Positions 11,306-19,482 of a stretch of DNA of 64,000 nucleotides are shown here, in pieces. Position 1 is the first letter of the stretch; every line of letters begins with the position of its first letter. Made by a program: the position numbers and the translations under genes. The stretch is taken from assembly GCA_965197475.1 (NCBI GenBank), contig CBDANF010000003.1, positions 192,001-256,000 on the forward strand, written 5' to 3'. Origin of the DNA: Candidatus Poribacteria bacterium. GTDB taxonomy: Bacteria; Poribacteria; WGA-4E; WGA-3G. Below the pieces are notes generated by a model. That model did no database searches. It saw only the letters and a list, made by a program, of their open reading frames with translations, and was not told where the DNA came from.

Positions 11306-12817
11306 ATGATTCCGATGGACACCAAAATTTCCGACGATTTTCCCCCGAAGTTTGCAAAAGAAGGGTTAACTTTTGACGATGTTTTGCTCATTCCCGCAGA
11401 ATCGAGTATTTTACCTGATGAAGTTGATACAAGCACACAGTTGACGCGGAATCTTCGGCTTAATATCCCTATCTGTAGTGCCCCGATGGATACCGTCACC
11501 GAATCTACCCTTGCTATTGCAATTGCGCGGGAGGGTGGTATCGGAATAATTCACTATAACTGTTCTATTGAGGAGCAGGTATCCGAAGTGGATCGTGTGA
11601 AACGTTCAGAAAGCGGAATGATAAGCGATCCGATTACGTTAACGAAGGATAAAACGATCCGGGATGCCCTTGAGATAACCGCTCGTTACCGCATCGGTGG
11701 TGTGCCTATCGTAACTGAGGACGGCCATCTTGTCGGTTTAATTACCAACCGAGACCTCAAATATGAAGATAATCTGGATCTTCCCGTTACTACTCGGATG
11801 ACACCCGCGGATAAATTGATTACCGCATCCCGAGGTGTTACGCTTGAAAAAGCGAAACAGGTGCTTCACAAGCATAGGAAGGAGAAACTGCCAATAGTTG
11901 ATAGCGAATCACGGTTATGTGGGTTGATCACTATCAAGGATATTGACAAGGTGCAGATGTTTCCACACGCTTGTAAGGACGATGCGGGTCGGTTACGTGT
12001 TGGTGCAGCGGTTTTGCCGTCAACACCTCTGGATAACGTTGAATTGTTGGTAAAGGCAGACGTAGATGTGCTTGTGTTAGATACCGCACACGGTCATTCC
12101 AAAAATGTAATTCGGGCAACAGAATATATAAAATCAGAATTTCCGGATATTGAACTTGTCGCAGGGAATGTCGTCACCCCTGAAGCAACGCGAAGCCTGA
12201 TTGATGCGGGGGCGGATGCTGTTAAGGTCGGTGTCGGTCCTGGGTCTATTTGCACAACGCGTGTTGTGGCAGGTGTCAGTATTCCTCAAATCACTGCAAT
12301 TTACGATTGCGCCCAAGAAGCGGATAAAGCCGGTGTGCCAATTATTGCCGACGGCGGTATCCGCTATTCTGGTGACATCGCCAAAGCGATTGGTGCTGGC
12401 GCAAGTTCCGTGATGATTGGTAGCCTCCTTGCTGGTACTGACGAAAGTCCAGGGTCTACAGTTATCTATCAGGGCAGAACATATAAGATTCACCGTGGTA
12501 TGGGTTCATTGGGAGCATTGCGAAAAAGAAACATTGAACTCGGAGAGCAAACAAGTGATGAAGAAATGGCAAAACTCGTGCCACGCGGTATTGAAGGTCG
12601 TGTTCCTCACAAAGGTAAACTGAGCAATTTTGTCTATCAATTGGTGGGTGGGATTCGTTCTGCAATGGGATATTGCGGCACGTCTGATATTGAGTCGTTA
12701 CGCAGAGATGTCCAATTTGTCCGAATGTCAAGCAGCGGTTACCGAGAAAGCCATCCGCACGATATTGATATTACTGAGGAAGCACCGAACTATACGGTCG
12801 CTAACCTGAACACATAA
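11306..12817 (+). CDS. guaB: IMP dehydrogenase
   Basis: [11 protein letters not shown] pair, [11 protein letters not shown] catalytic Cys loop, [11 protein letters not shown]. Confidence 0.97.
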
Positions 12818-12857
12818 ACTATTGAGACTCAGTAAGTCAAGCAAAGGGAGAAAAACG

Positions 12858-13961
12858 ATGAAAATCCGTATTGAAATCCTCACAACTTTACTATTGACGA
12901 CCGTTACTCTGCTCGCTGGCTGCTCTGGCTGCGGACAGAAAACCGCCCCCGAACACGCAGACCCTTATAACCAAGCAGAACACGGACCCGTCGCGGCGAA
13001 TAGCCGAAAGCCCGTAAAACTAACCATTGTTGAACCGAGTTTTGAGAGACTGATAGAACAGTTCAAAGCAGATGTCACTGAAAATAAGGGGGACCCAGAG
13101 ATGCTCAAACGCAAAAGAAAAGCAATTGCCAACCCCGATATACTGTGGGATGGCATCGGATTTGAGGTGCCCCCCACACTAAATTTCGATGAAATCCCAA
13201 GACTGCCGGGCTACAATCCAACACGCGATAAGATAAAAGTCCGCTCTTATTCTGAAAAAGGAAAACCTATACACGGGGTCTATGATCATGACAAAGAAGT
13301 GTATCCTTTTGCGGGCAAAGTTATCTACAAAACAAAAGATCAAGAGGAGAGGTTGGATGCTGTACGGCAAAACTGGAGGCATTTGAATCCAAATTCCGAC
13401 CCAGATGATACTAACTACTATCGAAAACGTGCTCCGATTGTGTATGAGGGAATAGATACACTCATTGCTGCAAAACATCTGAGTCAAGCGTTTAGCCCTG
13501 CTAAAAAAGCTCTTGGCGTTGAATATGCGGAGCGTGCAATACGTGAAAATCCGAACTCTGTTGAAGCGATGCGTATTTGGGTCAAATGCCATCCTGAAGA
13601 TCAAAAGATTGAGGCATACCAACAGCTGCTTTCAAAGTTCCCCAACGATGCGTTTGCTCACGAGCAAATCGCCGGCTACTACTACCGCGAAGAAGATACG
13701 GTTTCCGCCCTGGACCACATGCTGAAGGCTTGTCTGTTAGATAGTCGTATCGCGAAAACGAATGACTTATTAGCCAAATGTTATTTCAAACTCAGTGAAT
13801 GGGAGAAAGCCGTTGCTGCGTATCAGGGCATGGATTATTTTGTCAGTCCGAATTTTCTCTTTGAGAGTCCTGACAAAATAACTAAAGCCAAAGATGAGGT
13901 GCATAAGCAGCGAAAAGGGTATTCAGTTATAGAATTAACACAAGAAGGATATGACAAATGA
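12858..13961 (+). CDS. TPR-like lipoprotein, cassette A1
   Basis: Lipobox LLAGC, helical TPR-like C-terminal half; RBS GGGAG. Confidence 0.85.
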   Translation: MKIRIEILTTLLLTTVTLLAGCSGCGQKTAPEHADPYNQAEHGPVAANSRKPVKLTIVEPSFERLIEQFKADVTENKGDPEMLKRKRKAIANPDILWDGIGFEVPPTLNFDEIPRLPGYNPTRDKIKVRSYSEKGKPIHGVYDHDKEVYPFAGKVIYKTKDQEERLDAVRQNWRHLNPNSDPDDTNYYRKRAPIVYEGIDTLIAAKHLSQAFSPAKKALGVEYAERAIRENPNSVEAMRIWVKCHPEDQKIEAYQQLLSKFPNDAFAHEQIAGYYYREEDTVSALDHMLKACLLDSRIAKTNDLLAKCYFKLSEWEKAVAAYQGMDYFVSPNFLFESPDKITKAKDEVHKQRKGYSVIELTQEGYDK

Positions 13962-14101
13962 AATATCGCATTTCTGTTTTGACATTGTTTAGTGTGCTGA
14001 ATCCGTCCGCTGCGGATGGTCCACCGAGTGTTTCTATAGAGTCAGCGAATTTGGATGCGTATAATGGGTGGTTACCGAGAAAGCCATCCGCACGATATTG
14101 A
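13958..14101 (+). pseudogene. 5' stub of a secreted-protein gene fused out of frame to the guaB tail
   Basis: ATGA overlap with A1; MKYRISVLTLFSVL...VSIESANLDAYNGWLP resembles VCIEP..FNxWLP of 15312 and 19173. Confidence 0.7.
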
Positions 14102-14190
14102 TATTACGGAGGAAGCACCGAACTATACGGTTGCTAACCTTGCTACATAAACTGTTGAGACTCAGCAAGTCAAGCAAAAGGAGAAAAACA

Positions 14191-17823: not shown

Positions 17824-17967
17824 ATGAAATATCGCATTTCTGTTTTGACATTGTTTAGTGTGCTGAATCCGTCCGCTGCGGATGGTCCACCGAGTGTTTC
17901 TATAGAGTCAGCGAATTTGGATGCGTATAATGGGTGGTTACCGAGAAAGCCACCCTCACGATATTGA
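17824..17967 (+). pseudogene. second copy of the MKYRISV... 5' stub fused to the guaB tail
   Basis: Near-identical to 13958..14101. Confidence 0.7.
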
Positions 17968-18056
17968 TATTACGGAGGAAGCACCGAACTATACGGTTGC
18001 TAACCTTGCTACATAAACTGTTGAGACTCAGCAAGTCAAGCAAAAGGAGAAAAACA

Positions 18057-19088
18057 ATGGAACTTCGTATAGAAAAGTTCTTAACTTTATTTATGATCGC
18101 GATTATATTCCTCGCGGGTTGTTCGGGGTGTGCACAAAAAAACGCTCTAAAAGGGATTGAACCGACCAAGGATTACAAAGAACAATCAAAATACGGACCG
18201 ATCGCAGCGAACAGTCGCAAACCGGCAAAACTGCCCCCGTTCCCCGAACCGAGTTTCGAAAACCTGATAGAACAGTTCAAAGCGGATGTCGCAGCGAACC
18301 GTGGTAATCCGGGAGCATTGGAACGCAAACGAAAAGCGATTGCTAATCCCAATATTTTAGATTGGCCCTTCTTTGTCTCTGCTGGTGATTACAAAAAAGG
18401 GGAACAACCACTGTCTAAATTATACAGATATGAGACTATCACTATCAAAACAACAGCGGAACAAGAGAAAAGACTGGATGCCTTAAGGTCAGAGGAGCTC
18501 CCATCTGATGTACACAAACGAAAAAGAAACGAGATTTATTTTGGGGGTGTTGATACCCTTACCGCTGCAAAGTATTTTATGACGCGTGGCAGTAGAAATG
18601 CCTCCACCTATGGGGTTGAATATGCCGAGCATGCCATGCGCGAAAATCCAAATTCCGTTGAAGCTATGCACGTCTGGGCGAGATGCAGCAGCAACACTAA
18701 GGACAAAGAAAAGGGAATTGCGGTATTCCGCAAGATGCTGTCCAAGTTCCCGAACGCTGCCGCAGCCCACATTGGACTCGCACAGAATCTCTTTTATCAG
18801 GCTCTGAAGGTTCAAAGGGAGTTTGGTGCTGGTTCTCATATAAATCTTGTGGAAGAAGCACTTCACCACACACAGACAGCGATACAACTTGACAGCCGCA
18901 TCCCACGGTATAACTACTTATTAGCGCGGTGTTATTTTGAACTGGGAGAATGGGAAAAGACGCTTATTGTCTACCATGGAATGCCTTCTATTGGTATGGG
19001 AGCTGCTTTTAATTTGACATTTCAGAGAGCTCATGGAAATCTCGCGAAACAAAGGGGTGAATATTCTCTCTTTAGAGGGACTGAATGA
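18057..19088 (+). CDS. TPR-like lipoprotein, cassette B2
   Basis: N-terminus nearly identical to B1 (FLAGC), remainder divergent with TPR-like helices. Confidence 0.85.
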   Translation: MELRIEKFLTLFMIAIIFLAGCSGCAQKNALKGIEPTKDYKEQSKYGPIAANSRKPAKLPPFPEPSFENLIEQFKADVAANRGNPGALERKRKAIANPNILDWPFFVSAGDYKKGEQPLSKLYRYETITIKTTAEQEKRLDALRSEELPSDVHKRKRNEIYFGGVDTLTAAKYFMTRGSRNASTYGVEYAEHAMRENPNSVEAMHVWARCSSNTKDKEKGIAVFRKMLSKFPNAAAAHIGLAQNLFYQALKVQREFGAGSHINLVEEALHHTQTAIQLDSRIPRYNYLLARCYFELGEWEKTLIVYHGMPSIGMGAAFNLTFQRAHGNLAKQRGEYSLFRGTE

Positions 19089-19172
19089 TAAAGATGCTCT
19101 CCTCTGCATAATATTTGTGGGCGCAATTTTAATCTATAAACCCATAATAGAAAACAATAATGGATAAACAAT

Positions 19173-19482
19173 ATGAAAAATTATTATCTCACTATTTTAT
19201 TTTTACTGTTTACATCACTCCCGTTTGCCCACGCACAAAACGTCTGTATAGAACCGTTAAATAAAACAGAGTTTAATGCGTGGCTACCTGAAGATGGGGA
19301 CACGGTCACTTTTCTTGTGACCGTCGCAGGTGCCCAATCCACAGGTTCCATCGAGTTAAATCTTACCAATGTATCTACTTGGGAAGGGACATGCATGAAC
19401 AAAGGGACAGGCAACGATGCTGATCTATACTTTACCAGAACAGATCAGGTATTAGCGGGTAGGATTCGTTCTGCTATGGGAT
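19173..19482 (+). pseudogene. 5' stub of a secreted-protein gene fused to the guaB tail, cut by IS3
   Basis: Paralog of 15312 with the same RTDQV/LAGRIRSAMG junction. Confidence 0.8.

Follow-up and report, generated by a model that had tools for sequence, protein, structure and literature searches.

A guaB-linked array of predicted tetratricopeptide repeat lipoprotein genes in Candidatus Poribacteria and its likeness to integrase-free orphan-module arrays

Introduction

The orphan immunity arrays of the V. cholerae type VI secretion system (T6SS) are built by sequential displacement, and the authors who described them call them integron-like but without an integrase (Kirchberger et al. 2017; PMC5361080). 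Here, we describe a locus of Candidatus Poribacteria that resembles them in its apparent mechanism. In the window, i.e., the whole 64,000-nucleotide (nt) stretch of contig CBDANF010000003.1 (GCA_965197475.1) that was analyzed and to which the coordinates refer, the housekeeping gene guaB is followed by four genes for predicted tetratricopeptide repeat (TPR) lipoproteins, each behind the guaB end or a copy of it. The explanation we favor, at even chances, is that alleles of other lineages were stacked by homology-facilitated illegitimate recombination with guaB as the anchor, and that unequal crossover and gene conversion reshuffled them. The locus would be a hypervariable surface-lipoprotein locus of Poribacteria, the surface location being predicted. 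Poribacteria are dominant uncultured sponge symbionts, and the question touched on is how they appear to their host, to phages and to one another. Among the repeat domains of Poribacteria, those of the TPR type are the commonest (PMC3909097).

For the T6SS orphan arrays, the same kind of model has been proposed, and PMC5361080 describes several features that recur here: integrase-free stacking downstream of a conserved gene that serves as a homologous anchor, a proposed homology-facilitated illegitimate recombination, old modules that move back and sometimes take along the 3′ end of the gene once upstream of them, alleles that are nearer to those of other strains than to their neighbors in the array, and mosaics generated by later homologous recombination. 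In contrast to those arrays, the anchor in the Poribacteria locus is the housekeeping gene guaB, which has to remain intact and has no relation to the cargo. What is displaced is a conserved gene end instead of a variable toxin domain; effector/immunity pairs are replaced as cargo by a TPR lipoprotein and the stub of a secreted FN3 protein, and higher-order units have been re-amplified.

Tandem paralog arrays of esaG and tipC evolve by homologous recombination via conserved blocks (Garrett et al. 2022; PMC9484751). They are strings of non-identical paralogs with conserved 5′ and 3′ blocks, between which recombination leads to loss, expansion and mosaics, and copy number varies between close strains, as in the present locus; they differ from it in that they consist of cytoplasmic immunity genes and in that the repeat carries neither a housekeeping-gene fragment nor a neighbor-gene stub. 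Integrons share with the locus the single-gene cassettes in one orientation behind one promoter and a possible addition at the promoter-proximal end, whereas IntI, attI and attC are absent here and the unit boundaries vary. Antigenic variation by gene conversion is represented by the pilE/pilS, vlsE and tprK systems, which likewise combine a surface family, a conserved 5′ part, a variable body and gene-conversion mosaics; unlike them, the locus has no single expression site with silent partial cassettes, and three of the four window copies are complete. Rhs/CdiA orphan toxin-immunity modules were reportedly studied by Koskiniemi et al. in 2014. Each downstream cassette of these systems is said to begin with a piece of the conserved upstream gene, and recombination of the full gene with such a piece to rebuild an intact gene and swap what follows. 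The Rhs piece is reportedly fused in frame to the variable part, so that recombination alters the protein, whereas in the present locus the repeated guaB end does not belong to the same gene as the variable part. The 2014 study is cited as in-vivo evidence in the T6SS paper (PMC5361080).

Layout of the Array

The open reading frame (ORF) list, self-blastn, a repeat search and alignment of the units give the gene order guaB-A1-sY-t80-B1-sX-t178-A2-IS630-sY-t80-B2-sX-32-nt tail-IS3, in which A and B denote lipoprotein types, t denotes copies of the guaB end and s denotes 5′ stubs of genes of the family of a secreted protein, X. All features lie on the + strand except the IS630 element. The intact guaB (11306-12817) encodes an IMP dehydrogenase of 503 aa (Pfam PF00478 (IMPDH), E 4.9e-154). 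Upstream of it, 11042-11070 (+ strand) reads TTGACA-17-TATAAT with a TG and is the only 12/12 sigma-70-like match within 11000-20000; its promoter function is predicted from the consensus match only. Between guaB and the first lipoprotein gene, a spacer of about 40 nt (12818-12857) contains the strong ribosome-binding site (RBS) AAAGGGAGAAAAACG ahead of the ATG, and this spacer is repeated after each guaB end and ahead of every cassette gene.

The first unit consists of A1 (12858-13961, 367 aa), an A-type lipoprotein with the lipobox LAGC, the conserved N-terminal block and a TPR C-terminal half, followed by stub sY (13958-14069), the first 36 codons of an X-family gene from the signal peptide to NGWLP, which ends at junction J1. 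The guaB-end copy t80 (14070-14150; 80 nt, 26 codons and a stop, ending ANLAT) leads to the B-type lipoprotein gene B1 (14191-15300; 369 aa) and to stub sX (15312-15580), the first 90-93 or so codons of gene X. Junction J2 lies at the start of the copy t178 (15581-15758; 178 nt, 58-59 codons), behind which stands A2 (15799-16894), a pseudogene whose last codons resume at 17803-17826 after a decayed IS630-family insertion sequence (IS) element (16895-17802, - strand). A second sY (17824-17935), a second 80-nt t80 (17936-18016), B2 (18057-19088, 343 aa) and a second sX (19173-19450, 85.8% identical to the first) complete the row. The fifth guaB end, counting the native one, comprises the first 32 nt of a t178-type copy (19451-19482) and is cut by an IS3-family element (19483-20690).

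The repeats of the array are far beyond chance, as E = 0 in both self-blastn matches: the A1 unit matches the A2 unit with 90.7% identity over 1318 nt, and 13936-14439 matches 17802-18305 with 95.2% identity over 504 nt. A reading of this DNA made earlier from the letters and the ORF list alone (the sequence-only reading) had placed these features almost to the base, including the guaB end or copy with the spacer and RBS of about 40 nt ahead of each gene, the next-gene 5′ stubs, which are real and of two sorts, both X-family N-termini, and the further tail copy cut by IS3. It had counted four lipoprotein genes; A1, B1 and B2 are full length, and A2 is a pseudogene, since it carries a 1-nt insertion near 16233 relative to intact copies in two other genomes as well as the IS630 element in its last codons.

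Two terminator-like sites were found on the + strand of 11000-20000, one inside sX (15466-15478) and one inside IS630 (17469-17483); none lies at a cassette boundary in that scan. The complete lipoprotein genes, all in one orientation, are probably co-transcribed from the guaB promoter. It had been suggested that recombination would change which lipoprotein stands first behind that promoter; with complete genes that have their own RBS and no boundary terminator-like site, the first position may matter little.

guaB Tails, Spacer and Junctions

The portion of guaB that recurs downstream, in the window and in relatives, is its last 80-233 nt, and the tail copies start at three guaB positions, namely -80, -178 and about -233. 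Over the 121 aligned positions of 80-nt tail plus spacer, the two t80 copies of the window differ at 2, and tails across the window and relatives differ at only 2-16. Three distinct guaB-end alleles are present in the window, and the variant of the tail 3′ end plus spacer tracks the downstream lipoprotein, with CTTGCTACA ahead of B-type and CTGAACACA ahead of A-type genes. Compared with resident guaB over the last 54 codons, t178 has five synonymous and one non-synonymous codon differences, and at the non-synonymous site the tail has the residue found in three related loci (L001, L002 and L006, described below). Among random single-base changes in the t178 region, 22.4% would be synonymous (binomial P = 0.0028). 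The t80 copies show three and five synonymous differences from resident guaB, plus one N-to-A codon change. As the differences are mostly synonymous, the tails appear to be former live guaB ends, and the window tails would still have belonged to a working guaB when they diverged from the resident allele.

At J1, the X-family codons W-L-P, which read TGGTTACC in the X gene of locus L004, are joined to guaB at GCGGTTACCGAG, and the 7 nt GGTTACC are common to both parents. J2 shows a microhomology of about 5 nt (ATCAG/ATCAA). To judge from these sequences, both are illegitimate, microhomology-type joins. The fusion of sX with t178 is in frame and creates a 148-aa ORF (15312-15758) composed of a signal peptide, 93 X residues and the last 55 IMPDH residues, with a Pfam IMPDH match at residues 90-130, and the sY::t80 fusion is out of frame, with a stop 14 codons on.

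A Pfam scan covered 47 of the window's 48 ORFs that reach 150 aa, the remaining one (62988-64000) running off the window end, and detected no tyrosine or serine recombinase, integrase or resolvase. This agrees with the sequence-only reading, in which none is encoded nearby; the transposases found in the window are those of IS630, IS3 and IS1595 only. Likewise, no integrase or resolvase was recognized in L001 1264-3130 on reading the translations of ORFs of at least 45 aa. The repeat search of 9000-24000 returned only two inverted pairs and no attC-like repeat at a cassette boundary. With three tail start positions, no integrase, no attC-like repeat and no Rfam match, the sequence, to the extent that it can decide the matter, excludes a site-specific mechanism. 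Two further candidates were dropped: an RNA element, as 10500-21000 holds no Rfam match at gathering threshold, and a regulatory element embedded in the guaB end, the conservation of which is average in the one genome pair compared and in which no promoter-like site was reported.

Stubs and the Secreted Protein X

The stubs of the next gene are of two sorts, sY (36 codons) and sX (93 codons), both N-termini of the X family. X is secreted, and full-length versions of it occur in L006 (1127 aa) and L002 (1030 aa); Pfam recognizes three fn3 domains and He_PIG. Translations of X also contain the motif HEIGHA(I/V)GL(K/N)HPWES, which is HExxHxxGxxH-like and which we take to be a zinc site. No peptidase family could be assigned to X, for which Pfam shows only fn3, He_PIG and similar domains. 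Stub sY appears to be the N-terminus of a diverged X-family allele or paralog, of which L002 holds a longer copy (82 aa). The stubs are linked to the lipoprotein types: A-type genes are followed by sY in six of six cases and B-type genes by sX in six of six cases, three other genomes included, with window B2 counted as B-like for this purpose though it is a singleton in the tree.

The Lipoprotein Family

The products of A1, B1, A2 and B2 share, as had been claimed from the sequence alone, the lipobox LAGCSGC and the N-terminus GP(V/I)AAN...EPSFE(R/N)LIEQFKADV, and every window cassette has an ATG, an RBS, a signal peptide and a lipobox. The A1, B1 and B2 proteins are 46-48% identical to one another, and B1 is 99% identical to a copy at L001 11334-12443. 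Full-length genes make up three of four in the window and seven of seven in L001. Among 23 family sequences, the lipobox LAGC hardly varies, with G21 and C22 present in at least 90%, and the signal peptide MKLRIE..LLAGCSGC is common even to very distant paralogs. In the family tree (23 rows; the frameshifted window A2, the 520-aa protein of L008 6767-8329 and the degenerate L004 1693-2603 were omitted), an A clade comprises the window, three L001 copies and L002 (support 100/100), a B clade comprises the window, L001, L008, L009 and L004 (support 100/99), and B2 forms a singleton lineage. The A and B clades each span 3-5 genomes, and the lipoprotein types predate the species splits.

Regarding the fold, the TPR identity proposed earlier finds little support in Pfam, the TPR matches being weak and mostly below gathering cut-offs, and better support in structure prediction. 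An AlphaFold (AF2) model of A1, built from an alignment of 23 family members, reached a predicted local distance difference test (pLDDT) value of 81.7 and a predicted template modeling (pTM) score of 0.76, with a disordered linker at residues 21-56, then a small helix/strand domain and then helical repeats. In a Foldseek search of the PDB with this model, all 12 matches at E <= 0.001 were TPR proteins. The TPR fold is therefore supported by the model despite the weak Pfam matches, and the family combines a lipobox signal peptide with a predicted TPR fold, as expected of bacterial TPR lipoproteins whose lipidation is predicted. A more specific function could not be assigned, as Pfam, NCBIfam, Foldseek-PDB and ESM Atlas give generic TPR matches only, and the NCBIfam matches (PilW, MamA, PrsT) are far below cut-offs.

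Related Loci in Other Genomes

A scan of species-representative genomes with the lipoprotein alignment gave 169 pattern matches, of which 10 encode a relative, distributed over nine loci (L001-L009); eight of their records are titled Candidatus Poribacteria and one 'uncultured bacterium'. The family is multi-copy and, judging from these loci, Poribacteria-associated and usually adjoined by X. In L006, a full guaB is followed by a lipoprotein gene, X (1127 aa) and nuoI. L002 consists of a guaB tail of about 233 nt, an A-type gene, the sY of 82 aa, a second lipoprotein gene, full X (1030 aa) and nuoI, and no full guaB occurs in 9.7 kb upstream. L001 lies in a record titled complete 6.07-Mb chromosome, which is independent of the window. 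It contains seven lipoprotein genes (three A-type, one B1 and three distant paralogs), five guaB tails, two of about 233 nt and three of 80 nt with the sY junction of the window (J1), and also an IS and an 83-nt piece of sX; no full guaB was found within the locus sequence examined. Tail-bearing arrays were seen, among the genomes examined, in the window, L001 and L002 only.

Window 12737-15331 and L001 9880-12474 are 97.5% identical, whereas their flanks, order and copy number differ; thus, the order guaB-A1-B1-A2-B2 of the window is not that of L001. A comparison of the guaB-downstream region across relatives, proposed with the sequence-only reading, accordingly shows no invariant arrangement. 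L008 is a second locus on the L001 chromosome, at 5.76 Mb and with no guaB tail, and comprises a gene for a TPR lipoprotein of 520 aa that shares the leader, a B-type gene, an X stub with an internal stop and another lipoprotein gene. L009 (1-3091) is a 3-kb contig with a B-type gene, an sX of 30 codons and the start of a full guaB, which suggests either a duplication whose left breakpoint precedes guaB in its entirety or a contig that an assembler built over a repeat of this kind.

The tails of about 233 nt (L001 3948-4180, L001 8398-8630 and L002 9732-9960) start within about 5 nt of one guaB position, and the sequence upstream of the L002 tail differs from both L001 ones. Shared descent with later rearrangement or a local breakage hot spot would be possible explanations. 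Upstream of the L002 tail, 9455-9640 holds a small ORF with a signal-peptide-like start and an FN3 fragment 91% identical to L002 X, and 9696-9729 is a 34-nt stretch 91% identical to L004 3361-3394, which lies upstream of one L004 lipoprotein gene. A 19-nt string upstream of the same tail occurs once more in L004 and is absent from the window at 0-1 mismatch.

Mosaicism and Reshuffling

The A1 and A2 units are 100% identical at 12840-13140, 60-80% at 13190-13520 and 94-100% at 13521-13937. B1 and B2 share 97-100% identity over a stretch that begins in the stub and takes in roughly the first 240 nt of the gene, its end being placed at about 14290; their bodies are not alignable at the DNA level, and identity rises to 85-93% again near J2. 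Tails and leaders are far more alike than gene bodies. The central block of A2 is 99-100% identical to L001 4221-5345 and 97-98% to the L002 A gene; these A2-like copies sit behind 233-nt tails, whereas window A2 sits behind the 178-nt tail. In L001, tail 9880-9957 is chimeric, with the sY-junction variant at its 5′ end and the A-type variant at its 3′ end, from which a crossover inside the tail can be deduced. Based on the sequences, the tail plus spacer plus leader block is clearly a recombination substrate, as any repeat of such size would be. The mosaic genes, the chimeric tail and the A2 allele behind tails of different length (178 nt in the window and 233 nt in L001) agree with the earlier claim that the array is recombination-driven.

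Origin of the Array

The ancestral form would be guaB - lipoprotein gene - secreted FN3 protein X - nuoI, an order deduced from L006 and from the L-X-nuoI end of L002. Growth would proceed by sequential displacement. Incoming DNA with a different lipoprotein/X haplotype would pair with the chromosome via conserved guaB as the homologous anchor, and its other end, located in the 5′ part of X, would join illegitimately, by a few bases of microhomology, to the 80-233 nt with which resident guaB ends. Such DNA would bring a new working guaB end, a new lipoprotein gene and an X stub, and the old guaB end would be shifted one place downstream together with its own lipoprotein gene, the tails being fossils of former guaB ends. 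Once two or more tail plus spacer plus leader blocks exist, RecA-type unequal crossover and gene conversion would duplicate, delete, reorder and patch cassettes, as the mosaic blocks, the chimeric tail and the different orders in relatives indicate. IS elements would later break and scatter the arrays, and no dedicated recombinase or site would take part.

The joining of haplotypes across lineages is suggested by the multi-genome A and B clades with similar tails, by the lipoprotein/stub and tail/lipoprotein linkage and by the synonymous tail differences, and one displacement step per cassette would explain clades, linkage and synonymous bias together. The stacking or swapping of incoming DNA, as put forward in the sequence-only reading, is plausible in the light of tails that differ from resident guaB mainly at synonymous sites. 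Its proposal of the guaB end as a recombination anchor holds in part: the end serves as a recombination substrate but not as a defined site, given tails of 80, 178 and about 233 nt with microhomology junctions. The anchoring of the family to guaB is also incomplete, as five of the nine loci are tail-less and the tailed arrays of L001 and L002 lack a full guaB in the examined sequence.

Several observations weigh against the displacement of guaB ends by incoming alleles. No tail has been matched to a donor allele. The synonymous bias rests on few sites (6 differing codons in t178 and 4-6 in t80), and the same bias would be expected if the resident guaB end had been replaced by allelic recombination after duplication in situ. 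Both 233-nt tails of L001 are changed at a conserved arginine (R-to-C and R-to-H), which shows that tails do decay. Tandem duplication and displacement would leave junctions identical in structure, which cannot discriminate between them. Family genes without a guaB tail occur in L003, L004, L005, L007 and L008, and arrays of lipoprotein gene plus X stub without guaB tails occur in L004 and L008 and at the second lipoprotein gene of L002, so guaB is not needed for stacking. A B-type gene directly behind native guaB can be deduced only from the odd 3-kb contig L009. The codon identity of window and L006 guaB at conserved residues, for this one genome pair, is 0.56 over the last 25 full codons and 0.55 overall. 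Given this average synonymous conservation, the lack of a reported promoter-like site in the tails and the tail-less and detached arrays, the guaB end appears not to be marked as a special site. The model also presupposes DNA uptake and recombination in an uncultured phylum.

The strongest competitor, which we regard as a real possibility though a less probable one, is tandem duplication in situ by microhomology-mediated illegitimate recombination, followed by unequal crossover and by gene conversion from dispersed paralogs. The left breakpoint would lie in the guaB end and the right one in the X 5′ part, the tails would be passive scars, and the synonymous differences would stem from later allelic replacement of the resident guaB end. 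A tandem duplication would have exactly the structure seen, in which the 5′ part of X meets the 3′ part of guaB at microhomology, and amplification did happen, as the flanks of J1 are nearly the same wherever it recurs, and so are those of J2. The mosaic blocks are consistent with gene conversion, tail-less arrays of lipoprotein gene, stub and lipoprotein gene imply that breakpoints vary, and the left breakpoint of L009 seems to lie upstream of the whole guaB. A potential dispersed donor also exists in L008, with its B-type gene and X stub at 5.76 Mb of the L001 chromosome; however, this B-type copy has no guaB tail and cannot be the source of a tail-bearing B cassette. To yield three mostly synonymous alleles, each duplication would moreover have to be followed by its own replacement of the resident guaB end, and the six-of-six linkage of A-type with sY and of B-type with sX implies that whole lipoprotein/X haplotypes were joined, not that bodies alone were converted. 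The balance struck here between displacement and duplication reflects the small site counts, the decaying L001 tails and the native guaB of L001 and L002 being outside the comparison.

An artefact of assembly, by which strain variants of one guaB-lipoprotein-X locus were strung together, is highly improbable. The window organism is uncultured, its units are similar enough to mislead short-read assemblers, and the related contigs L004, L007 and L009 are short and end inside the family. Nevertheless, J1 occurs three times with identical sequence in the independent complete-chromosome record of L001, the junctions join non-homologous sequence at 5-7 nt of microhomology, which is too short for an assembler overlap, and the IS630 element lies with clean TA flanks inside one unit. 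It is unlikely, in our estimation, that the array is a selected surface-variation device with no need of a recombinase of its own. In such a device, the end of an essential gene would be a portable homology arm that polices itself, as a faulty exchange would be lethal; strains living together would supply the cassettes, RecA-dependent tail-to-tail exchange would change their number and order within a host population on ecological time scales, and the row of guaB ends would be a dated capture record. Still more doubtful is a selected fast-switching system, in which frequent tail-to-tail recombination would alter the promoter-proximal lipoprotein or the number expressed and guaB essentiality would police the anchor. 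The single orientation behind a strong promoter-like site with no + strand terminator-like site at a cassette boundary, the tails and leaders kept much more alike than the bodies, the order that differs between close relatives and the crossover inside an L001 tail would all suit such switching. Against it, there is no recombinase and no attC-like inverted repeat, the tail lengths vary, and the cassettes are complete genes with an RBS and not silent partial copies. An IS has also struck the pseudogene A2, IS3 cuts the array, and the L001 and L002 arrays no longer adjoin a full guaB. The pseudogene, the two IS insertions and the truncation that accompanies an IS are signs of decay and slow turnover more than of programmed switching.

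Relation to Known Classes

An integron would have IntI beside the array and an attC-type repeat at each cassette end, neither of which was found, and an att-type island in a gene 3′ end would have a fixed boundary and an integrase instead of three tail starts and none. The cassettes are also unlike the promoterless, 5′-truncated donors of the silent pilS/vls type. With no IntI, no attC and no silent cassettes, the integron-like or antigenic-variation-like character once suggested for the array is not supported. Orphan-module arrays compare well: a guaB 3′ fragment stands ahead of the modules (80, 178, 80 and 32 nt in the window; five tails in L001 and one in L002), the modules are nearer to those of other genomes than to each other in the 23-row tree, and the joins are illegitimate with 7-nt and about 5-nt microhomology, a picture that tandem duplication would also give. 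Toxin/immunity cargo is not part of this likeness, as no such family was matched among the cargo, the padloc library not being searched. Homology blocks, mosaic genes and a change of copy number relative to L001 are those of a tandem paralog array.

In mechanism, the locus therefore resembles, by analogy, integrase-free orphan-module arrays, Rhs orphans and tandem paralog arrays, and it is set apart by the housekeeping anchor, the surface lipoprotein cargo with a neighbor stub and the uncultured sponge-symbiont host. It is not a new kind of system, and the term 'new system' used in the sequence-only reading is too strong, since a model of integrase-free, anchor-based stacking is already in print for T6SS orphan immunity arrays and Rhs orphans (PMC5361080). 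No report of a guaB-lipoprotein array or of this lipoprotein family was found in literature searches. The locus reveals a lineage-specific lipoprotein family that is deeply polymorphic, stacked, reshuffled and usually paired with a large secreted X. If sequential displacement of guaB ends is true, integrase-free anchor-based stacking would reach beyond toxin/immunity loci to ordinary surface proteins as cargo and a housekeeping gene as anchor, and displaced guaB ends could be markers of past inter-strain exchange in an unculturable organism. The array is also a concrete target for long-read population work on sponge microbiomes.

IS Elements and Other Genes of the Window

The IS630 element has 33-nt terminal inverted repeats and TA flanks, is inserted at a TA in the last codons of A2 and retains transposase pieces at 17550-17762 and 16910-17263. 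The IS3-family element encodes orfA (19562-19852) and orfB (19858-20688); no right inverted repeat was found for it, and the guaB tail does not resume 3′ of it. Next to this element, a beta-lactamase-family (PF00144) gene on the - strand (21018-22243) is split into two overlapping ORFs (21302-22243 and 21018-21344) and is probably a frameshifted pseudogene.

Other TPR proteins also occur in the window. In the product of 23756-24850 (- strand), which may be defence- or signalling-related, many TPR repeats come after a TIR_2 domain (E 1.8e-16) at the N-terminus. A WD40 propeller protein adjoins a fusion of an extracytoplasmic function (ECF) sigma factor with WD40 (54332-56964 and 52005-54149, both on the - strand), and a trypsin-like peptidase fused to long TPR arrays is encoded near these genes. 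A single ORF on the + strand (45211-46161) combines a Polbeta nucleotidyltransferase with a HepT-like domain, and its product looks like a fused MNT/HepT toxin-antitoxin-type protein. The window further encodes a DNA methylase (34997-36601) and the IS1595 transposase (50778-51662).

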